IMG/VR virus record: IMGVR_UViG_3300027129_000004
Location: 24,107-88,106 of that record
DNA from: a virus
Taxonomy: Duplodnaviria > Caudoviricetes
Strand: one strand, 5' to 3'
Length of the DNA stretch: 64,000 nt
This document shows, piece after piece, positions 6,881-26,050 of the stretch. Below the pieces are notes generated by a model, which was given only the letters and a program-made list of their open reading frames with translations, ran no database searches and was not told the origin of the DNA. Positions within the stretch are counted from its first letter, which is position 1, and each line of letters begins with the position of its first letter. The position numbers and the translations under genes were made by a program.

Positions 6881-7055
6881 ACGAAACCTAAAACAACAAC
6901 TCCAGTATTCCTACTATGAGGATATGGAGGATGGTAGAACAACTGAAACGATTGATTATGATGCCTTGATTGAAATTATTGATGATTTGTATGATAAAAT
7001 TGAAACACTTCAAAGGGATAATGAATTCCTGAAATCTTATGCTTGGGAACAATGA
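6873..7055 (+). CDS. hypothetical protein
   Basis: 60 aa, paralog of 5902. Confidence 0.75.
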   Translation: MTERNLKQQLQYSYYEDMEDGRTTETIDYDALIEIIDDLYDKIETLQRDNEFLKSYAWEQ

Positions 7056-7246
7056 CTGACGAACAAATCTGCGAAATGGTTAATAGGCACCGATACCTTA
7101 TGAGGTGTGAGATTAAACACGCACTTGATAAATTTTGTGCTGAAAATGGGAACCAAGACTTCAGCACTGCCAATCGTTCAGAAGCATTCAACGATACAAA
7201 ATGGATTGAATTTGCTAAATGGTTCAAGGAGATAAGAGATGAATGA
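7052..7246 (+). CDS. hypothetical protein
   Basis: coupled ATGA start within ORF 7043-7246. Confidence 0.65.
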   Translation: MTDEQICEMVNRHRYLMRCEIKHALDKFCAENGNQDFSTANRSEAFNDTKWIEFAKWFKEIRDE

Positions 7247-7421
7247 AGAACTTTATATTCTTTATCTCAAACTTCGTGGTGGATATTGGAGAGTTAAGGA
7301 GGCATTTTCTATTTGGGGATTTTTGATGACCCATAGTTTGGAAAGATTAAATGAAAGATGTCACGGTTTAAATTGTTTTGATGAGTTTTATGCTACAATT
7401 AATGGTGGTTGGAAAAAATGA
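7239..7421 (+). CDS. hypothetical protein
   Basis: 60 aa, AAGGAG RBS. Confidence 0.65.
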   Translation: MNEELYILYLKLRGGYWRVKEAFSIWGFLMTHSLERLNERCHGLNCFDEFYATINGGWKK

Positions 7422-7567
7422 CCGAACAATACGGGAATCTTCCTGATGGTTTCTTTCTTTATGAAAGGGAGATTGAAGACTTGAGAAACTCTAAAAAAGA
7501 ATTGACGACTTATGGTAGAGAGAAACTGAGAGAACTTATTGAAAAGCAGAAGAAAGAGGACACCTGA
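7418..7567 (+). CDS. hypothetical protein (49 aa), duplicate of 4843
   Basis: differs from the 4843 copy by S15Y, K17R, G18E; stop inside the palindrome. Confidence 0.75.
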   Translation: MTEQYGNLPDGFFLYEREIEDLRNSKKELTTYGREKLRELIEKQKKEDT

Positions 7568-7614
7568 CCAACTGGCACAAGACCCCTCCACAGGGGCACC
7601 AGATGCCTTATAAT
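7556..7614 (+). promoter_or_regulatory. early promoter element
   Basis: GAGGACACC-TGACCA-ACTGGCACA, 29 nt, TATAAT. Confidence 0.8.
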
Positions 7615-7646
7615 AGTCTCATACACATAACAAATACTCTATTTTT

Positions 7647-7919
7647 ATGAACAAAGAACCACTCCAAGCAAAAGTATCCGACGAAGATTACCAAAAACTT
7701 CTTGATTACTTCAAAACTCAACTTGTTCAATCGGTTGTACCCAACAACCCTTTGAGTAAGGTTCAACAAACACGAACCATCTATTCCAAAATCAAAGAGA
7801 AAAATGTAGTAGAAGGTCTGGTTTCTTTTGATGGTGAAGAACCTGCTTGGGTTCCGATTGAAACCATCAACGGGATTTATTCCTTTATCAACAAAACCTT
7901 TGACAATTTTAACATTTGA
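7647..7919 (+). CDS. hypothetical protein
   Basis: 90 aa, directly after the promoter. Confidence 0.7.
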   Translation: MNKEPLQAKVSDEDYQKLLDYFKTQLVQSVVPNNPLSKVQQTRTIYSKIKEKNVVEGLVSFDGEEPAWVPIETINGIYSFINKTFDNFNI

Positions 7920-7928
7920 TAGTATAAT
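7900..7928 (+). promoter_or_regulatory. sigma70-type promoter for tRNA-Cys
   Basis: TTGACA-17 nt-TATAAT perfect consensus. Confidence 0.8.
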
Positions 7929-7939
7929 CGTCTGGTGCT

Positions 7940-8016
7940 GTGTCTGTGGACCGAGTGGTGAAGGCAACCGTCTGCAAAACGGTTAATCAACGTGGGTTCA
8001 AATCCCACCAGACACT
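7940..8016 (+). tRNA. tRNA-Cys (GCA)
   Basis: acceptor GTGTCTG/CAGACAC, anticodon arm ACCGT-CTGCAAA-ACGGT, T-arm GTGGG-TTCAAAT-CCCAC, U discriminator; no encoded CCA. Confidence 0.9.
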
Positions 8017-8054
8017 CTTATAAATTATGAGGCACTAAAGGAACTGAAATACAA

Positions 8055-8204
8055 ATGAGTGAAGACCTAATCTTCTATACAAATGGTAAAGAAACGTCCC
8101 GTATTCCTTCTCCAACTCTTGAAACTCTTACTCTTGGAACCAAAACACCAGAAACTAAACTTGAAATAGAAAAAACAATGGATAAAGAAGATACTGATAA
8201 ATAA
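8055..8204 (+). CDS. hypothetical protein (49 aa), possibly truncated homolog of the 3068 N-terminus
   Basis: IFYTNGKETSRIPS...GTKTPETKLEI vs IYYKNGEETFRISP...GTKCPETKLEI. Confidence 0.55.
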   Translation: MSEDLIFYTNGKETSRIPSPTLETLTLGTKTPETKLEIEKTMDKEDTDK

Positions 8205-8263
8205 TAGTGCTTATGTGTGTCGCAACCATAGCAGAGATTGGGTGCTTTCGGGCACCTTTTCTT
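8197..8263 (+). ncRNA. candidate late small RNA antisense to the endonuclease leader (with its promoter and terminator)
   Basis: ATAAATA, hairpin whose loop is complementary to 8276-8295, then GGTGCT-TTCG-GGCACC-TTTTCTT. Confidence 0.5.
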
Positions 8264-8264
8264 G

Positions 8265-8272
8265 TATAAATA
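8265..8272 (+). promoter_or_regulatory. T4-type late promoter
   Basis: TATAAATA 28 nt before the ATG. Confidence 0.75.
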
Positions 8273-8300
8273 CTATTGCGACACAACATAAAGCAGAACT

Positions 8301-9089
8301 ATGGAACTCAAAGAGTATCACTATGTTTATTATTCCTATGAGGAATATGGTAGAGGATATTTTGGTAGTAGAACTTGTAAATGTTTACCAGAAGATGATG
8401 TAAGATATTTTGGTTCTTACAGGGATAAGACATTCAAACCAACTCAAAAGATAATCTTGAAAAGTGATTATGCTACAAGAGAAGAGGCATATGATGATGA
8501 GATTACTTTACAAGAATATTATAAAGTAGTTGAAAATCCACATTTTTCTAATAGGGCATATCAAACATCTACAAAATTTTCTTATATAAGACCAACAGAA
8601 CAAGCAAGAGAAATTGGAAAAAAATCTGGATTAAAAGTAAAAGAACTTGGATTGGGATTTCACGCACTCACAAAAGAACAATTAAGTGAAAATTCTAAAA
8701 AAATGGTAGAAAAACATAGAAAAACTGGAACTGGTTTATTTACTTTAACTAATGAACAAAGAAGTAAAGGTGGATTAAAAAATAAAGAACAAGGTTCGGG
8801 AATTTTTTCTTTAACGGAAGAAGAAAAACAAAAAATAAGAAGTGAAGCAGGAAAAATAGGAGGGAAAAGGGCAGCAGAACTGAAAGTAGGTGCTCACGGA
8901 AGAACAAAAGAACAGATGAGTGAGGATGGTAAAAAAGTATCAAAATCAGTAAGAATACAAGCAGGAAAAACAACAAGTTCTCAAAGATGGATGTGTCTTG
9001 AAACAGGACATATTTCTACACCAGGAGGACTTTCAAAATATCAAAAACATAAAGGAATAGATACTTCTAGAAGAATAAGAGTATCATAA
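8301..9089 (+). CDS. GIY-YIG (Seg-like) homing endonuclease
   Basis: HYVY...GYFGSR, conserved E and N of the GIY-YIG domain; basic C-terminal repeats (G.G...LT.EQ). Confidence 0.75.
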   Translation: MELKEYHYVYYSYEEYGRGYFGSRTCKCLPEDDVRYFGSYRDKTFKPTQKIILKSDYATREEAYDDEITLQEYYKVVENPHFSNRAYQTSTKFSYIRPTEQAREIGKKSGLKVKELGLGFHALTKEQLSENSKKMVEKHRKTGTGLFTLTNEQRSKGGLKNKEQGSGIFSLTEEEKQKIRSEAGKIGGKRAAELKVGAHGRTKEQMSEDGKKVSKSVRIQAGKTTSSQRWMCLETGHISTPGGLSKYQKHKGIDTSRRIRVS

Positions 9090-9148
9090 AGGACACTTGA
9101 CGAACTGGAACAAGGTGCCTTTACGGGGCACCTTTTTTGTTGTATAAT
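9089..9148 (+). promoter_or_regulatory. early promoter element overlapping a terminator-like hairpin
   Basis: AAGGACACT-TGACGA-ACTGGAACA, AAGGTGCC..GGCACCTT-TTTT, TATAAT. Confidence 0.7.
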
Positions 9149-9169
9149 ATGAGAAATCAAAGGAACATT

Positions 9170-9475
9170 ATGGAAGATAGATTTTATCCAGATGAAATGT
9201 TTGAAGTTGCTGAACGAAGGGAGAAGAGTAATCGTGTTCTCCAAAGGTATAATGACTACTACAATATGGAGTGTGAATCATTACCAACTGGAGGACCAAT
9301 TAGTATGATGCATATGCAAGCAATTGCATTACAATCTGCAATTGATGCTCTGCGTTGCGAAAACCTGAATCGTGAGTATAATGAAATCGCAATCTCTGAT
9401 ATTGAGGATTTGATTGAACGATTGTATCAACAGAGTAATGAGTATCTTGAACGAGTGAGGAAACTGAAAAAATGA
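9170..9475 (+). CDS. hypothetical protein
   Basis: ATG with AAGGA RBS within ORF 9137-9475. Confidence 0.7.
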   Translation: MEDRFYPDEMFEVAERREKSNRVLQRYNDYYNMECESLPTGGPISMMHMQAIALQSAIDALRCENLNREYNEIAISDIEDLIERLYQQSNEYLERVRKLKK

Positions 9476-9490
9476 CTTACTCACCAAACC

Positions 9491-9549
9491 TGTGACACTT
9501 GTGAAACTGGCACAAGACCCCACCAATCCCCCTGTGGATGCCCTATAAT
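9491..9549 (+). promoter_or_regulatory. early promoter element
   Basis: TGTGACACT-TGTGAA-ACTGGCACA, 29 nt, TATAAT. Confidence 0.8.
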
Positions 9550-9571
9550 AGTCTCATATTCAAAAAGAGCA

Positions 9572-9835
9572 ATGACTGCTTCCAATCTTTCTAAAATCAA
9601 ACCTAAACTTCGCACTCAAGGCTCTGTATCTGGGAACTTTGGTAGGGCAAAAGTTAAAGCAGGTTCTCCTTTGCGTGATATTGGAATGACCGATGCAAAA
9701 GTAGTTAAAGTTTGCACACAAGAAGATTATCTGAAGAGACTCTATCTTGCATATGAGACAACTGAAGATGCTAAACTGAAAAAGTTTGTATTTTCTGAAA
9801 TTAAAAAGATTCTAATCCAACGAGGGGAATGGTGA
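9572..9835 (+). CDS. conserved cyanophage hypothetical protein
   Basis: SNLSKIKPKLRTQG.VSGNFG motif, recalled from cyanomyovirus early genes. Confidence 0.75.
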   Translation: MTASNLSKIKPKLRTQGSVSGNFGRAKVKAGSPLRDIGMTDAKVVKVCTQEDYLKRLYLAYETTEDAKLKKFVFSEIKKILIQRGEW

Positions 9836-10017
9836 GTAACACTGTTTACGCATATTCAGAAGTTGAACGTGCTTACAAGATTCTTAAAGAACTTGCAGAA
9901 CGTGAGAATAAACTTCATATGATGGATATGACCATCAATCTCCAGCATCTTGATGTTATTCAATACGAGATTCTTCCTGCACTGGAAGAAATCGTTTATT
10001 TTGACCCAACTCCTTAA
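9829..10017 (+). CDS. hypothetical protein
   Basis: 62 aa, GAGGGG RBS. Confidence 0.65.
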   Translation: MVSNTVYAYSEVERAYKILKELAERENKLHMMDMTINLQHLDVIQYEILPALEEIVYFDPTP

Positions 10018-10037
10018 TTGTCTACATAGGTATAACA

Positions 10038-10096
10038 ATGGACAGTTTTTTCACTGTCCATTTGCACTTGATTACGCACCGAAAGGGTGCTATGAT
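10038..10096 (+). promoter_or_regulatory. early promoter element (covariant arms)
   Basis: ATGGACAGT-TTTTTC-ACTGTCCAT perfect inverted repeat, 29 nt, TATGAT. Confidence 0.75.
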
Positions 10097-10240
10097 TACG
10101 AAGTAAATCACTCAAATGATGTTCGACACATTCAATTTTACTGGTGATGCCACTACCTTTATTGGTTTGGTTGGTGTTATTAGCACTGCTGTTATTGTTA
10201 TTACTGTTTTCCGTTCTTACTGGTCTAGTCCTTATCGCAA

Positions 10241-10462
10241 ATGAATTATTCAAAATCCATTCAAGAGTACGAAAAAGAACTCAAAGAAGCAAAGAAAAAG
10301 TTTGATAAACTCTCAAAGCAATATAAAAAGTGTAGAAGTGTTTATCAAGCAGAGATGATGTACGATGACCTAACAATTCTGAATGAAGATATTTCTGAAC
10401 TTCAGATGATTGTGAAGGAACTGCGTCAACAAAAGAAACTTGCCGAAATTGATGTTGTCTAA
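10241..10462 (+). CDS. hypothetical coiled-coil protein
   Basis: 73 aa heptad pattern. Confidence 0.7.
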   Translation: MNYSKSIQEYEKELKEAKKKFDKLSKQYKKCRSVYQAEMMYDDLTILNEDISELQMIVKELRQQKKLAEIDVV

Positions 10463-10464
10463 TT

Positions 10465-10695
10465 ATGTCTGACCTTTATACTGAAATCTTGGTGTTTAAC
10501 AAAATGTCTTTTAATCGTGAGCAACTTGTTGAGGATTATATCCAGCAAACGATTGGAGGAATGGATTATAAGACTATGGAACGTTTTGTTTATGATACTT
10601 TGAAAGATAATCTAGCAGATTATAATGATGAAGAATTGATTACAGAGGTTACAGACTACTACCCAGAATTGTTGGAGGATGTTGATACTCTGTGA
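10465..10695 (+). CDS. hypothetical acidic protein
   Basis: 76 aa; stop TGA lies in the palindrome left arm. Confidence 0.7.
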   Translation: MSDLYTEILVFNKMSFNREQLVEDYIQQTIGGMDYKTMERFVYDTLKDNLADYNDEELITEVTDYYPELLEDVDTL

Positions 10696-10749
10696 CACTT
10701 GTGGCACTGGCACACTAAAAGATCACAGCACCTCAAATCCTGCTATAAT
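10691..10749 (+). promoter_or_regulatory. early promoter element
   Basis: TGTGACACT-TGTGGC-ACTGGCACA, 29 nt, TATAAT. Confidence 0.8.
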
Positions 10750-10956
10750 TACTTCGTAATCAATCAACACCATGTTAGTCCTTGATTCTATTGGTTTCTA
10801 CGATAAGTTTCAAAATTATAATCTAATCCTAGATTTTTCTGGTCGTTGGGTAGAACATTATAATTATATGATATCTCCTTTTAATGAAAAATGGATAAAT
10901 AAAACCTATCAAGATGAGATAAGGCAAAATCGGTTTTACGATGTTTGATTGTGCCT

Positions 10957-11015
10957 TGTGCCACTGATTCTTCTGGCACATAACACTTTACAGACCCCAG
11001 AACCTGTGCTATGAT
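10957..11015 (+). promoter_or_regulatory. early promoter element
   Basis: TGTGCCACT-GATTCT-TCTGGCACA, 29 nt, TATGAT. Confidence 0.8.
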
Positions 11016-11043
11016 GTATTCATCAAGTCAAGGAGGTTTCAAG

Positions 11044-11187
11044 ATGATTGACACTTGTGTTCTTCACGATGATTACGAGGACTTTGCTAAAAAGTTTCTC
11101 GGTGTTGATTATGAGGACTTTATTGGTCTTCAACTTGGTCTTCCCGATGAAGATGAAATTGAAATTGAATACTCTTTAAGTATTTGA
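11044..11187 (+). CDS. hypothetical acidic protein (47 aa)
   Basis: AGGAGG RBS; MIDTCVLHDDYEDFAKKFLGVDYEDF... Confidence 0.65.
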   Translation: MIDTCVLHDDYEDFAKKFLGVDYEDFIGLQLGLPDEDEIEIEYSLSI

Positions 11188-11272
11188 TTTCATTTGGAAC
11201 GGGTTTGCCAATGGGTTGGAAATATCTAACCAATAAAGTTACCCATTTTTCGTTCCCTTGACTTTTCATTAA

Positions 11273-11503
11273 ATGTCTGCTAAACTGATTGCTCTTGCTT
11301 CCGAAATCGTTGATACCAACCCTGCTGCTGCTCAACTGATTGTTAGTCTGACTAAAGCAGAAACTGGTGCTGAACTCATCGAAGCACTTGATAACTATGA
11401 TTCCACCGTGCTTGAGAACTATTCTGAACCTGTGGATTCTGAAGATGAAGATGAAGGTGAAGTGACTCTCACCGATGCAGATGGTATTGTAACTTCTGTT
11501 TGA
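11273..11503 (+). CDS. hypothetical acidic protein
   Basis: 76 aa. Confidence 0.7.
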   Translation: MSAKLIALASEIVDTNPAAAQLIVSLTKAETGAELIEALDNYDSTVLENYSEPVDSEDEDEGEVTLTDADGIVTSV

Positions 11504-11541
11504 TTTTTGATTCTTTAATTTCTTAACCAACTAATTTTATT

Positions 11542-11793
11542 ATGGCACGTCGCAACAAGTCTGCATCTCGTCAAATGGTTGAAAATCTTCAAGAACAACT
11601 TGTTGAGTATTTTCAAGAAAACATCTTTGATGATTGTGATTACGAAGATTTGACTGGTTCTGACCTTCTTGAAGCACTGGTTGGCACTTTCCGTGAACTG
11701 GAAAGTGAAATCCAAAAGAAAATGAACCCGATTCAGTATGTGCTAAATAAAATTGACCCAGAGGATTCTGAATCTCAAGTCCTTAACGGTTAA
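11542..11793 (+). CDS. hypothetical protein
   Basis: 83 aa. Confidence 0.7.
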   Translation: MARRNKSASRQMVENLQEQLVEYFQENIFDDCDYEDLTGSDLLEALVGTFRELESEIQKKMNPIQYVLNKIDPEDSESQVLNG

Positions 11794-11878
11794 TTCTTAC
11801 GGGCATCAAAGGTCCAAACTTTGAATAAGACCCACACCCTCTATGCCTCTTAACAATGCACAAACCAGAGGGTCTCTT

Positions 11879-11951
11879 GGGCATATGGTGAAGTGGATTA
11901 TCACACGGCTCTTCTAAAGCCTTATCCCTGGTTCGAATCCAGGTATGCCTG
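11879..11951 (+). tRNA. tRNA-Arg (TCT)
   Basis: acceptor GGGCATA/TATGCCT, D-stem GTGA/TCAC, loop CTTCTAA, T-arm CCTGG-TTCGAAT-CCAGG. Confidence 0.9.
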
Positions 11952-11956
11952 TTTAA

Positions 11957-12029
11957 TATAAATAATAGTGCCTGAGTTGGGTGCAATCTTCACAGGTAAG
12001 ATAGTGGGGGCAGAAATGTCCCCTCTTCT
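11957..12029 (+). ncRNA. candidate late small RNA antisense to the endonuclease leader (with its promoter and terminator)
   Basis: TATAAATA, GTTGGGTGCAAT complementary to 12042-12053, GGGGGCA-GAAA-TGTCCCC-TCTTCT hairpin. Confidence 0.5.
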
Positions 12030-12031
12030 AA

Positions 12032-12039
12032 TATAAATA
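12032..12039 (+). promoter_or_regulatory. T4-type late promoter
   Basis: TATAAATA 25 nt before the ATG. Confidence 0.75.
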
Positions 12040-12064
12040 CTATTGCACCCAACAAAGAGCAGTT

Positions 12065-12640
12065 ATGAAAGGTACTATTTATTGTATCCACTGTATTTCC
12101 ACTGGAGAGAAATATATTGGACAAACCAGAAGAAGTATACAAGATAGACTAAGATATCACAAATACGCATCTGCAAAAAGTTCCAGAGCAAAATTATACA
12201 TACAAGCAAATAAAACTGGATGGGATGATTTCATAATTGGGATTGTTGAGCAGTGTGAGGTCAATCAATTAAATGGAAAAGAATGTTTTTATATTGAAAC
12301 ATTTAATACTTTAGAAAAAGGACTGAATAGTTCTCCAGGTGGAGGAAAATTCCCAGTTATGAAAGGAAAATTGCACCCTTTGTTTGGAAAAGGACATAAA
12401 AAGGAAACAAAATTAAAAATAAGCAAAAATCATCACAATGTCTTAGGAAAAAACAATCCAAGGTCAAATTATTATGAAGTTGAATTTTTAAATGGAAAAA
12501 AAGAAACTGTTCATTGTTTGACGGAGTGGGGAAGAAACAATGGATACAAAAAACAAAATTTATTTAATTTAGCTTGCAATCTCCAGAAATCACCTCACAA
12601 AGATATTTTAAAAATTACTAAAATTCAAAATGAAAGTTAA
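12065..12640 (+). CDS. GIY-YIG homing endonuclease with NUMOD3-like motif
   Basis: TIY...YIGQT..R...H, E, GLN; HPLFGKGHKKETKLKIS. Confidence 0.85.
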   Translation: MKGTIYCIHCISTGEKYIGQTRRSIQDRLRYHKYASAKSSRAKLYIQANKTGWDDFIIGIVEQCEVNQLNGKECFYIETFNTLEKGLNSSPGGGKFPVMKGKLHPLFGKGHKKETKLKISKNHHNVLGKNNPRSNYYEVEFLNGKKETVHCLTEWGRNNGYKKQNLFNLACNLQKSPHKDILKITKIQNES

Positions 12641-13403
12641 AGTAGCATCAGATTTGCACCTTGAATTTTTAAACTCTTTTGAAGAAATTCCAAACTTAGG
12701 AACTGCTGATATATTAGTGCTGGCAGGAGATATATTTCCAGCAAAGTATTTAAAAACAAATGGAAAATTAAAAGACATTTATCTTCGTTTTGTGGATAAA
12801 TGTTCAAAAGATTTTTCACATATATTATATGTTCTTGGGAATCATTGCTATTATGGATACAATTACGAAGGAAGTAAGAGGAAAATAAAAGAGCATCTTC
12901 CTCATAATTTCCAAATCCTTGACAATGACACAGTTAAGATTGGAGACTGGAACTTTATAGGTTTCACTCTCTGGACTGACTTTAGAAATGAAAATGCTCT
13001 AGAGATGATGGAAGCAGCACAAGTGATGAATGACTACAAAGTTATTCGTATTACTCCAAAGTATCGGAAACTGAATCCAACTGACACTCTTAATTTTCAT
13101 AAGGATAGTAAGAAGTATCTGTTGAATCAACTACAAACACTCAATGACAATGTATTTGTCATCAGTCATCATGCACCGAGTTATCAATCGGTTCCACAGC
13201 AATTCAAGAAACACGCAAATGGTGCCTATTGTAGTAATCTGGATGATTTGATTGTTAATCATCCACAAATTAAATACTGGGCACACGGACACACTCACAC
13301 TGCTTTTAATTATATGATTGAAGGTTGCCGAGTGATTTGTAATCCTGGTGGGTATCCTGGACAAGGAACTGGATTTAATCCAGATTTACTTTTTGACATC
13401 TAG
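12630..13403 (+). CDS. calcineurin-like metallophosphoesterase
   Basis: SDLH, LAGD, GNH, SHH, HGHTH motifs. Confidence 0.9.
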   Translation: MKVKVASDLHLEFLNSFEEIPNLGTADILVLAGDIFPAKYLKTNGKLKDIYLRFVDKCSKDFSHILYVLGNHCYYGYNYEGSKRKIKEHLPHNFQILDNDTVKIGDWNFIGFTLWTDFRNENALEMMEAAQVMNDYKVIRITPKYRKLNPTDTLNFHKDSKKYLLNQLQTLNDNVFVISHHAPSYQSVPQQFKKHANGAYCSNLDDLIVNHPQIKYWAHGHTHTAFNYMIEGCRVICNPGGYPGQGTGFNPDLLFDI

Positions 13404-23983: not shown

Positions 23984-24157
23984 ATGACTGCTGCTCAACG
24001 GATGGAAAAGCAATTCTTCATTCAAATGATTCAACTTGTGAATGAAGTGCAAGGTAAGCAGAAACTTCCTTCTCAAGTTAATTCTTCTCGTAAGTCTGCT
24101 TGGTGTAAGAAAGTTTCTAATCCCAAGCAAAAGAAAGATGCACTTGCTCGCATCTAG
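23984..24157 (+). CDS. hypothetical basic protein
   Basis: MTAAQRMEKQFF... downstream of the promoter. Confidence 0.65.
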   Translation: MTAAQRMEKQFFIQMIQLVNEVQGKQKLPSQVNSSRKSAWCKKVSNPKQKKDALARI

Positions 24158-25834: not shown

Positions 25835-25884
25835 AGTTTTGTCCCAAAACCCCCTATAAATAACCCTAGTTTTGGGACAAAACT
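25835..25884. repeat. 16-bp perfect inverted repeat enclosing a late promoter
   Basis: AGTTTTGTCCCAAAAC ... TATAAATA (25855-25862) ... GTTTTGGGACAAAACT. Confidence 0.85.
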
Positions 25885-25885
25885 T

Positions 25886-26050
25886 ATGAGACCACAAAAG
25901 TATAAGAATTTGGGTGAAACTGAAAGAATGAGAGTGCCCTTATGCAAACAACTTACACGTTTGTGTGATGCATTAGATAAAAAGGCAGAAGATGGATATG
26001 ATGTCGTTGAGATATTAGATTCATTTATTGAGAGTATCAAGGACATATAA
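25886..26050 (+). CDS. small putative ribbon-helix-helix-like DNA-binding protein (54 aa)
   Basis: MRPQKYKNLGETERMRVPLCKQLTRLCDALD...; GET...RVP shared with 17560. Confidence 0.6.
   Translation: MRPQKYKNLGETERMRVPLCKQLTRLCDALDKKAEDGYDVVEILDSFIESIKDI

Follow-up and report, generated by a model that had tools for sequence, protein, structure and literature searches.

How do homing endonucleases stay harmless to the phage that carries them? Among the restraints described in PMC2988022 are promoter choice, autorepression, intragenic terminators, RNase E cuts and cis hairpins. The question is posed again by a freshwater T4-like cyanophage, analysed here in a window of 64,000 nucleotides (positions 24,107 to 88,106 of IMG/VR record IMGVR_UViG_3300027129_000004), which places a portable control cassette before each selfish nuclease gene. 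The upstream RNA arm of this cassette pairs with the leader of the nuclease mRNA, and it looks built to be made as a small late antisense RNA of its own. The order of the elements is invariable: TAAATA (P1), the stem-loop SL1, an intrinsic terminator (T1), TATAAATA (P2), a leader complementary to SL1, and the ATG (Table 1). Every element listed in a preliminary description of the locus was found where that description had placed it, by direct sequence check, repeat finder, fold and terminator scan.

Table 1. Coordinates of the cassette features and of a second module copy in the window.
Feature	Position	Strand	Basis or remark
Inserted cassette, approximate extent	8184-9191	+	comparison with the empty-site relative L176
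P1, late-promoter-like box gATAAATA	8197-8203 (core TAAATA 8198-8203)	+	motif
ATAGTGC	8204-8210	+	directly 3' of P1
Hairpin arms TGCTTATG / CATAGCA	8208-8215 / 8227-8233	+	loop holds TGTGTCGCAA (8216-8225)
5' arm (antisense segment)	8208-8225	+	complementary to leader 8276-8295, with two bulges
SL1 stem-loop, TGTGTCGCAA in apical part	8209-8232	+	RNAfold of 8209-8263, covariation
Predicted late small RNA, ~54-55 nt	8209 to ~8262/8263	+	prediction, from P1 +1 to U-tract
T1, intrinsic terminator GGGTGCT-TTCG-GGCACCT then TTTCTTG	8240-8263	+	terminator scan; adjoins P2
P2, consensus T4-type late promoter TATAAATA	8265-8272	+	motif
3' arm, leader segment TTGCGACACAACATAAAGCA	8276-8295	+	sequence, repeat finder, fold, covariation
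Homing-endonuclease-like ORF, 262 aa	8301-9089	+	ATG at 8301
Second module copy	11957-12067	+	directly after tRNA-Arg; 82 bits

Within the two arms the repeat finder reports an inverted repeat of 10 nt without mismatch (8216-8225 / 8276-8285), and in the two promoter regions a direct repeat (8197-8210 / 8266-8279) that is 86% alike. The fold of RNA 8190-8330 has -42.7 kcal/mol (z = -4.59) and encloses the terminator between the paired long-range arms; 0 of 200 shuffles fold as well. T1 consists of a stem of G+C (8240-8257, 7 pairs in the terminator scan), a TTCG loop and, behind the stem, a run of T. SL1 starts at the predicted +1 of P1, G8209, which is the sixth nucleotide past the box. At the level of the motif, the predicted +1 of P2 is G8278, and the late mRNA would therefore begin within the 3' arm and lack the 5' arm. 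The 3' arm covers the ribosome-loading region and ends 5 nt upstream of the ATG.

The gene downstream behaves as a mobile one. Its product has a GIY-YIG-like N-terminal motif, seen by eye only, and its C-terminal 130-160 amino acids are common to the other nuclease genes of the contig. In tblastn it is 44% and 42% identical to paralogs (E 2.6e-28 and 2.3e-25) that match the homing-endonuclease families phrog_314 and phrog_655; searched itself, the ORF falls in no Pfam family within cut-off (E up to 1), and PHROGs and PDB sequence searches name nothing. The relative L176 has an empty site at the position of the cassette, ATGGA is repeated at both cassette edges (8179-8183 and 9170-9174), and the module is present in only 3 of the 58 loci that have the neighbouring gene. 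Sporadic occurrence and an empty site, as expected of a free-standing homing endonuclease gene, are thus both found for the gene at 8301-9089. Parts of the stretch occur in 20 of the 21 metatranscriptome runs listed. The RNA data are assembled contigs of four runs (X1-X4), a form that shows no transcript starts or ends; a contig of run X1 departs from the window at 8182 with letters like those of the empty site, and the contigs of the four runs give zero cover of 8444-9139.

The cassette is not peculiar to this gene. It precedes all five homing-endonuclease-like genes of the 88-kb contig, matches to model R1 are present at 40 of 41 IMG/VR loci that were found via the protein and code for nuclease relatives, and the cultured phage S-SRM01 has six copies. 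A motif-plus-structure screen returned at least 106 unique modules from at least 128 instances; the 106 come from the contig itself (5), from protein-found loci (27) and from pattern-found loci (74), and the counts from the pattern scan of viral contigs hold among the matches listed and are not prevalences. The pattern scan also produced A+T-rich chance matches, many of them in giant-virus bins, and an initial loose duplex-energy screen, which mixed true modules with chance matches, was replaced by the stricter one. In the second module of the window the arms have a different sequence with complementarity retained, and the gene downstream (12065-12640) encodes a 191-aa GIY-YIG/NUMOD3 nuclease; across this survey there are at least 66 distinct arm sequences. 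The target ORFs are nucleases of ~190-330 aa, and GIY-YIG-like and HNH nucleases alike carry the module. With the module shared by both kinds of nuclease, the other role considered in the preliminary description, that of an RNA cofactor for autoregulation, finds no support.

When 7600-9500 was compared with cultured phages at near identity, the sole match was to S-SRM01, over 15% overlap, and a search for distant matches among cultured phages gave S-SRM01 as the sole match for two modules and none for a third. Rfam cmscan of 7500-12500 (E up to 1) gave no match on either module; its matches in that interval were two tRNAs, an abiF RNA and a sub-threshold plastid match on a tRNA. The heptamer ATAAATA is depleted in the window, with 14 sites where 30.3 +/- 5.1 are expected (all 100 shuffles had 14 or more), and its strand bias is 13:1 toward the + strand. 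The cassette is real, and its arrangement is far above chance.

What does selection maintain in it? In alignment A3, which like the other alignments behind the pair counts had been fitted to the very structures under test, 97.7% of cells are paired over the 17 pairs of the arms and the 6 of the terminator, with both-side changes at 23 of 23, a result equalled by 0 of 500 shuffles, and slid controls are just 30-52% paired. The arm pairs are individually 95-100% paired, with both-side changes at all 17, and the terminator helix is 97.5% paired, with both-side changes at all 6 of its pairs. Column-based pairing on a plain MAFFT alignment was unreliable through gaps, and covariance models were used instead. 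Independently of any alignment, cognate arm-leader duplexes have -21.2 kcal/mol against -9.1 kcal/mol for non-cognate ones, and an arm ranks its own leader first in 50 of 66 modules; in the 5x5 arm/leader matrix of the contig the diagonal runs from -20.6 to -23.5 and the off-diagonal from -5.3 to -16.5. Complementarity to the target is maintained by compensatory change across the module set. The preliminary description would have counted a lack of covariation between loop and leader as its refutation; the two do covary, across dozens of homologous modules, and their complementarity is under selection. Arms and terminator contain many G-U pairs (at two positions, for instance, 13 and 8 cells), which argues for selection on the + strand RNA and not on DNA.

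A hairpin that acts purely in cis would produce every one of these covariation results just as well, and the module certainly encodes such a classical lock too. The hairpin with an internal late promoter is the known lock of the T4 family, in which a hairpin that sequesters the ribosome binding site has a late promoter between its arms; it is documented in PMC2988022 for I-TevI, I-TevII, I-TevIII, segB and Aeh1 mobE, and also for T4 soc, e, 39, 25 and 26. Both systems have an inverted repeat whose 3' arm lies over the region where translation of a homing endonuclease gene starts, both have TATAAATA between the arms, from which the late mRNA would start without the 5' arm (here at motif level), and both would have the purpose of keeping the nuclease silent until late. 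However, the cassette adds a strong predicted intrinsic terminator within the loop, and it places the 5' arm in a covarying stem-loop of its own behind a second invariant late-promoter box, as a separate putative promoter-to-terminator unit. It is also modular, common to GIY-YIG-like and HNH genes, with an arm sequence that is individual to each. At 25836-25885 the same window also has a simple hairpin of the T4 type, its loop containing a late promoter, that shows no upstream TAAATA and no terminator; a cis lock alone therefore needs neither.

The box with which the cassette begins is strictly conserved. P1 TAAATA is present in 105 of the 106 listed modules, which were detected without requiring it (5/5 on the contig itself, 27/27 in protein-found loci and 73/74 in the pattern-found loci listed). 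Among 67 aligned modules there are 15 invariant columns, of which 14 are the two boxes (P1 TAAATA and P2 TATAAATA) and one is a T in the terminator tail. An A+T-rich 5-mer followed by a purine at the sixth nucleotide past the box is found behind P1 in 59/66 modules and behind P2 in 64/66, a spacing that fits the T4 late box, which lies at -13 to -6 with variants tolerated at -13/-12 according to PMC2988020. In this phage c/a/a/gATAAATA stands before four structural genes, P1 shares its NATAAATA form with the boxes of the baseplate and adaptor genes, and the empty-site comparison locates P1 inside the mobile unit. With an invariant motif, the right spacing and a form that the promoters of structural genes also have, P1 is a candidate promoter. 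The preliminary description had credited the upstream arm with a late promoter and a terminator of its own, and both motifs are conserved, that of P1 strictly. P1 may nevertheless be weak, since mostly it is without the first T of TATAAATA, which is present in just 20/66 modules, with CTAAATA in 9/66. Its TAA is often the stop codon of a frame that enters the cassette, which would be another reason for keeping part of the motif; here the second TAA (8202-8204) ends a short remnant reading frame.

Directly behind this box a small RNA is predicted to begin. The first paired base of SL1 is 3-6 nt past the P1 box in 60/66 modules, and the predicted P1-to-terminator RNA folds as two hairpins, SL1 and the terminator, in 66/66. 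The closing stem of SL1 has -6.68 kcal/mol for cognate against -3.86 kcal/mol for non-cognate strands, with 0 of 5000 permutations as low; by column count the SL1 helix is just 75% paired, owing to a one-column shift in one subfamily, and alignment-free tests were used in its place. Folding z-scores for SL1 are modest (median -1.5; below -1.5 in 33/66 modules), and the predicted free RNA leaves only some half of its arm core unpaired (median 0.54). Net of the opening of SL1, the modelled duplex between small RNA and leader has a median of -14.0 kcal/mol and is below -5 in 66/66 modules, whereas shifted non-cognate pairs have -2.2 kcal/mol in the same energy balance. An RNA of roughly 55 nt had been proposed at the outset; the predicted product of ~54 nt (8209 to ~8262) agrees with it and would have the two-hairpin shape that is typical of antisense RNAs. 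An action of the predicted small RNA in trans is plausible. Among co-resident modules 3/106 pairs are cross-reactive within genomes, compared with 975/18800 between genomes; sharing a genome brings no measurable gain in orthogonality over random pairing, and the comparison does not separate cis from trans.

These features may be read as a cassette that controls a free-standing homing endonuclease gene from its 5' side at four levels and travels with the gene, and for the whole of this reading, the trans-acting P1 RNA included, we consider the chances evenly balanced. T1 would halt transcripts that enter from upstream. Any read-through RNA would contain both arms and close a 17-20-bp hairpin over the leader, so that the nuclease would not be translated, as in the classical T4 lock. 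P2, situated between the arms, would start a late mRNA that lacks the 5' arm and so would be translatable. P1, at the left edge, would be a further late promoter and drive an RNA of ~55 nt consisting of SL1 and T1, with a loop and 5' strand that complement the opening 17-20 nt of the P2 mRNA. As both RNAs would be made late, the small RNA would accumulate, pair with the leader in trans and cap nuclease synthesis or limit it to a short pulse, an incoherent feed-forward in which late transcription would switch on mRNA and repressor alike.

The most serious competitor, which we think possible but clearly less probable, is that the module is a cis lock with an insulator and nothing besides: the terminator and hairpin would silence upstream transcripts, P2 would give the translatable mRNA, any short RNA would be a by-product that has no function in trans, and the first TAAATA would be kept as a stop codon, as the end of the cassette or as a silent promoter-like relic. 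Such a lock is the documented mechanism for the T4-family endonuclease genes named above, it is compatible with all of the arm covariation, and in several contexts the TAA of P1 does serve as a stop codon. Hairpins with TATAAATA before metagenomic phage endonuclease genes have also been reported already (PMC2677866). That study by Dassa et al. (2009) deals with free-standing endonuclease genes of 'fractured genes' in ocean metagenomes, and shares with our cassette a leader hairpin with TATAAATA at metagenomic phage endonuclease genes; however, its account of these hairpins describes no upstream second box and proposes no small RNA. The word 'terminator' is absent from its main text, and a motif figure in its supplement may bear on the comparison. 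What a lock in cis leaves unexplained is the invariance of a six-letter TAAATA, 3-6 nt from SL1, in 105 of the 106 listed modules, when a stop could be TAG or TGA and stand anywhere. It also leaves unexplained why the 5' arm sits inside its own covarying stem-loop, and the simple lock of the same genome has neither element. If P1 fires, moreover, a terminated RNA complementary to the leader would coexist with it in the cell, and the modelled duplex is strongly favoured.

Two further explanations were weighed. Polymerases travelling from P1 to T1 might transiently occlude P2 and thereby lower the amount of nuclease mRNA, the RNA product being irrelevant; with P1 and P2 69 bp apart, the U-tract ending 1-2 nt before the P2 box and this spacing conserved (CTTTTCTTGTATAAATA or close variants in most modules), the geometry suits such interference, which nonetheless strikes us as improbable because it needs neither SL1 nor complementarity between transcript and leader, yet both are conserved and covary. 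Least probable of all, to the point that we would give it little weight, is a DNA-level element, with the repeated terminator-promoter block as a recombination substrate by which nuclease genes and leaders are shuffled and the inverted repeat as a cruciform or protein site: the terminator-P2 block is 41/42 identical in two modules of the contig whose arms and nuclease types differ, identical arms precede different nuclease ORFs in other contigs, one RNA contig switches at 8282 from this module into the leader of another, and PeSL cassettes have been proposed to mediate such shuffling (PMC4122927), but the common G-U pairs of arms and terminator would be C-A mismatches on the other strand, which points to selection on the + strand RNA, and shuffling, which may well occur, would be a side effect.

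A small-RNA unit of the kind favoured here would have relatives in function. In IS10, the loop of the antisense RNA-OUT pairs with the 5' end of the enzyme mRNA, RNA-IN, and the antisense RNA then covers the ribosome site. There, as predicted here, a mobile element limits its own DNA-cutting enzyme by an antisense RNA; RNA-OUT, however, comes from the opposite strand, whereas the cassette uses an upstream inverted repeat on the same strand. The c4 RNA, which controls an antirepressor in a temperate phage, is encoded on the same strand upstream of its target and cut from the target's own transcript, and its loops set the specificity between phages P1 and P7. With c4 the cassette shares a small structured upstream RNA, loop pairing with a downstream leader that blocks translation (here predicted), and covarying segments that set specificity; it differs in its predicted late promoter and terminator, its selfish nuclease target and its lytic phage, and there is no sequence relation. 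In phages P1 and P7, c4 is an antisense RNA that targets the ant mRNA (PMC12197685).

Nearer in host, the cyanophage S-PM2 produces CfrI, an antisense RNA located between psbA and the homing endonuclease gene F-CphI (PMC5931967, PMC12197685). Here too a cyanophage non-coding RNA is tied to a homing endonuclease gene; as described in these sources, though, CfrI comes from the opposite strand, measures ~225 nt and belongs to a single locus; it has no pair of late promoters and is not a portable unit of promoter, stem-loop and terminator. PeSL elements (PMC2839356, PMC4122927) are likewise short repeated terminator/promoter units in variable regions of T4-like phages with possible modular exchange, but the promoters described there are early and no leader-complementary arm is reported; the main text of PMC4122927 never uses the term 'late promoter'. 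StxS is a short RNA of Stx phages that arises from PR'-tR', where a late promoter is followed by immediate termination (PMC7547250). A late promoter with an adjacent terminator thus yields a small regulatory RNA in that system as well, although the account in PMC7547250 has it as a by-product of antitermination with host targets and not complementary to the downstream gene. Membership of the type I toxin-antitoxin systems was considered and rejected, as the targets are nucleases of ~190-330 aa and not small toxic, usually membrane, peptides. The likeness to a type I antitoxin drawn in the preliminary description is accordingly one of analogy only: the target here is the mRNA of a 262-aa nuclease, and there is no sign of an addiction logic.

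The combination of P1, SL1 and terminator as a separate small-RNA unit appears to be undescribed, and a literature search found no description of a second upstream late promoter or of a small RNA for such cassettes. If the small RNA were inert, the module would still offer a clean, strongly covarying version of the T4 lock, one that is modular in a new way and includes its own insulator. The cultured phage S-SRM01, with its six copies, makes the idea directly testable, and the family offers dozens of natural pairs of arm and leader whose specificity is set by 12-18 nt. Tentatively, and with rather less assurance than we attach to the reading of the single cassette, freshwater T4-like cyanophages may possess a large family of portable small-RNA/leader pairs in which each nuclease gene has its own late antisense RNA. 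Homing endonucleases would then have their first known case of control by a small RNA, and the at least 66 distinct arm sequences would constitute a ready-made set of orthogonal riboregulators. A dedicated antisense RNA within a self-contained cassette would be a new layer of control that moves with the gene, and it would explain how nucleases of different families settle harmlessly at new sites.

Every sequence element that the preliminary description had listed for the twin-promoter module is present: a first late-promoter-like box (P1), a stem-loop (SL1) carrying the 5' arm, an intrinsic terminator (T1), a second box (P2) and a leader segment holding the 3' arm lead, in this order, to the ATG of the 262-aa homing-endonuclease-like ORF (see table). 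The RNA of 8190-8330 has a folding energy of -42.7 kcal/mol, its long-range arms closing around the terminator, which none of 200 shuffles equalled (z = -4.59). The twin arrangement occurs five times in the 88,106-bp source contig (34% G+C), whose 3' 64 kb make up the window, each time immediately 5' of a nuclease-like ORF. A covariance model of the module has exactly five matches in the contig and matches 40 of the 41 IMG/VR loci with relatives of the 262-aa protein. A structure screen requiring only P2, a terminator-like hairpin and at least nine contiguous arm pairs returned at least 128 instances and at least 106 unique modules in the loci examined, a sample that is not unbiased, as presence of the first box was a condition of the pattern scan that supplied some of the loci. 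Six complete modules, likewise placed before GIY-YIG-like and HNH ORFs, occur in S-SRM01 (Kyanoviridae), a cultured freshwater phage. Among 65 ORFs lying 3' of distinct modules, phrog_314 is matched by 47 and phrog_655 by 27; both families carry the annotation homing endonuclease.

Features of the twin-promoter module and its surroundings (window positions, except where L001, the source contig, is named)
Feature	Position	Strand	Details
P1 box	8197-8203	+	ATAAATA
SL1 stem	8208-8215 / 8227-8233	+	TGCTTATG / CATAGCA, TGTGTCGCAA in loop
T1	8240-8263	+	G+C stem, TTCG loop, T-run; also in terminator scan
P2 box	8265-8272	+	TATAAATA
Leader segment	8276-8295	+	Complement of 8208-8225 with two bulges; perfect 10-nt core
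ATG of 262-aa ORF	8301	+	Contig nuclease with module
Contig nuclease 1	L001 6142-6384, 6341-6904		80-aa GIY-YIG-like fragment, then overlapping 187-aa NUMOD3 ORF (other frame)
Contig nuclease with module			261-aa ORF
Contig nuclease with module			254-aa HNH-type ORF
Contig nuclease with module	12065-12640		191-aa GIY-YIG/NUMOD3 ORF
Stem-loop-plus-TATAAT units	7557-7630, 9090-9150	+	Two related units flanking variable segment 7582-9089
Sigma-70 promoter	7900-7928	+	Perfect, 12/12 (TTGACA, 17 nt, TATAAT); 12 nt before tRNA-Cys (7940-8017)
abiF RNA (RF03085)	11837-11873	+	Rfam, 48.8 bits vs gathering score 37, E 4.3e-07; immediately 5' of tRNA-Arg (11878-11952)
Plain T4-type lock	25836-25885	+	Inverted repeat AGTTTTGTCCCAAAA / TTTTGGGACAAAACT, TATAAATA in loop; 3' arm ends 1 nt 5' of ATG of 54-aa ORF (25886-26050)

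The complementarity between arm and leader covaries among homologous modules; lack of such covariation would have counted against the preliminary description. In an alignment of 35 distinct rows fitted to the arms-plus-terminator structure, 97.7% of 771 cells hold standard pairs and all 23 pairs have changed on both sides; no shuffle out of 500 reached any of five pairing measures, and sliding the partners by 1-3 columns left only 30-52% paired. Because fitting to the structure favours such counts, alignment-free tests were added. The duplex of a module's 5' region with its own leader comes to -21.2 +/- 1.9 kcal/mol, vs -9.1 +/- 3.5 kcal/mol for leaders of other modules, and the cognate leader ranks first in 50 of 66 modules and second to eighth in the remainder, a likely result of nearly identical arms among related modules. 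When the five arms of the contig are set against its five leaders (5x5 matrix), the diagonal runs from -20.6 to -23.5 and the off-diagonal from -5.3 to -16.5. On the small-RNA side the complementarity begins at the base predicted to be first, takes in the variable loop and ends at a conserved GCA; on the leader side it begins at a conserved TGC, where the mRNA is predicted to start, and ends at a conserved AGAG(C/T)AG just 5' of the ATG, so that it covers the region of ribosome loading.

Judged by its form and placement, P1 behaves like a promoter. Among the 106 unique modules listed, 105 have TAAATA at most 30 nt before the 5' arm: 5/5 from the contig, 27/27 from protein-found loci and 73/74 from pattern-found loci. 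The two boxes account for 14 of the 15 invariant columns (the other being a terminator-tail T) in a 67-row alignment whose members were picked after a check for TAAATA upstream of the arm. After each box comes an A+T-rich pentamer with T at the fifth nucleotide, and then a purine at the sixth (P1, 59/66; P2, 64/66). According to passages of PMC2988020, the first base of the 8-bp T4 late box is at -13, and the box lies roughly one helical turn before the transcription start; variants with A(-13) occur at 9 of 50 sites in T4, and Aeh1 has a/gC at -13/-12. The sixth nucleotide is thus where +1 would be expected, and both NATAAATA and CTAAATA fall among the accepted variants. In this phage three baseplate-wedge genes and a head-tail adaptor gene are preceded, 21-29 nt 5' of the ATG, by cATAAATA, aATAAATA, aATAAATA and gATAAATA, identical in form to P1. 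ATAAATA has 18 sites on the + strand of the contig and one on the - strand; in the window it is about twofold depleted and lies almost exclusively on the coding strand.

Comparison of loci indicates that the cassette is mobile, with P1 inside the mobile unit. In a relative with the empty site (L176), nothing separates the homolog of 8110-8183 from the beginning of the downstream gene: ATGGAT and then the counterpart of 9189 onward. The window's insertion comes after ATGGA(T) at 8179-8184, P1 begins 13 nt later, and an 8-codon remnant frame ends at a TAA of the P1 region. A 49-aa ORF at 8055-8204 (+) is most likely leader plus remnant start and not a gene, since L176 identifies 8110-8183 as the downstream gene's leader and ATGGAT at 8179 as its original start, severed by the insertion. 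Only three of 58 loci holding the downstream gene have the module. In loci L004 and L005 the same nuclease comes right after the homolog of ORF 7409-7567, the box following that ORF's former stop, and in four other relatives (L164, L165, L167, L215) this homolog is joined straight to the stretch from 9090 onward, the variable segment being missing. An RNA contig from one metatranscriptome run departs from the window at 8182 with letters like those of the empty site.

At 8282 an RNA contig of the same run crosses from this module to that of the HNH gene, through either chimeric assembly or, as it may signal, recombination of modules. The terminator-P2 blocks of the two (8241-8282 and L001 10047-10088) are identical at 41 of 42 positions and their arms differ. 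The arm of the HNH-gene module (L001 10002-10100) recurs in L015-L023 in front of ORFs whose beginning resembles that of the 262-aa protein (MELK...), so modules and nuclease ORFs change partners at the ATG or close to it. The contig's first nuclease gene is broken into two ORFs, the 187-aa one with three NUMOD3 stretches: a homing endonuclease gene, frameshifted or in decay, whose control module is intact. A second nuclease module lies directly 3' of the tRNA-Arg that follows the abiF RNA match. The stem-loop-plus-TATAAT units look like PeSL-like early promoter/terminator cassettes, thought to mediate module exchange; PeSL cassettes as described in parts of PMC4122927 are early-promoter units, unlike the late-promoter module here.

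In structure models the P1-to-T1 unit resembles an RNA gene. Pairing in SL1 starts 3-6 nt after the P1 box in 60 of 66 modules, and all 66 predicted RNAs fold to exactly two hairpins, SL1 and the terminator. The SL1 closing stem covaries with its own 3' strand, the cognate pairing reaching -6.68 vs -3.86 kcal/mol for non-cognate strands, a value matched by none of 5000 permutations; the column-based count is weaker (75% paired, 4/5 pairs changed on both sides), one subfamily that includes the window's module being shifted by one column. Heterodimers with the 60 nt at the 5' end of the P2 mRNA are favourable by a median of 14.0 kcal/mol after the cost of opening SL1, with net energies below -5 in 66/66, vs -2.2 for shifted non-cognate pairs; for the window's module the dimer reaches -40.1 vs -19.4 and -5.4 for the monomers. 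Parts of 7000-13000 occur in 20 metatranscriptome runs, and 8444-9139 is uncovered by contigs of the four examined; being assembled contigs, which show no ends, these data are neutral on a small RNA.

How might such a cassette act? By analogy and covariation, its cis part is close to certain. T1 would shield the nuclease gene from transcription entering upstream, such as early transcripts from the sigma-70 promoter, which would enter the cassette and reach T1; read-through RNA would be locked by paired arms, and P2 mRNA, beginning inside the 3' arm, would be open. P1 is predicted to yield a late RNA of about 55 nt that pairs in trans with the P2 leader. The full model, cis lock plus this RNA, has in our judgment an even chance of being right. 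In favour of the small RNA are that P1 is invariant and regularly spaced, has the form of real late promoters of the same phage and lies inside the mobile unit, together with the separate covariation of SL1, the favourable duplex with the leader, and the contrast with the plain lock before a 54-aa ORF of no PHROG family, which has neither upstream box nor terminator. Against it, P1 falls short of the full consensus, SL1 partly hides the arm, and part of the P1 motif also serves as a stop codon; action of the cassette in cis only is a tenable though less probable reading. Even without P1, upstream transcripts ending at T1 would have SL1 at their 3' end, and the orthogonality of co-resident modules is uninformative on cis vs trans action. 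Promoter occlusion is improbable. The frequent G-U pairs indicate that the structure is read on + strand RNA, and a DNA-level role is very improbable. The interpretation first proposed is supported in part: arm pairing is under selection, and the small-RNA layer is credible but still a candidate.

The nearest functional analogies are the c4 RNA of phages P1 and P7 and IS10 RNA-OUT. Locks with an embedded late promoter are described in parts of PMC2988022 for I-TevI, I-TevII, I-TevIII, segB and Aeh1 mobE, and PMC2677866 reports metagenomic endonuclease genes preceded by leader hairpins with TATAAATA; its relevant passages mention no second box, and the word terminator is absent from its main text. 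CfrI of S-PM2 differs in being an opposite-strand RNA, according to parts of PMC5931967 and PMC12197685. The words promoter and terminator are both absent from the S-SRM01 genome paper, and in the literature searched neither an upstream late promoter nor a small RNA was found described in such cassettes. The cassette represents a known mode of control in a new, modular form, and its candidate small-RNA layer is testable in a cultured phage.
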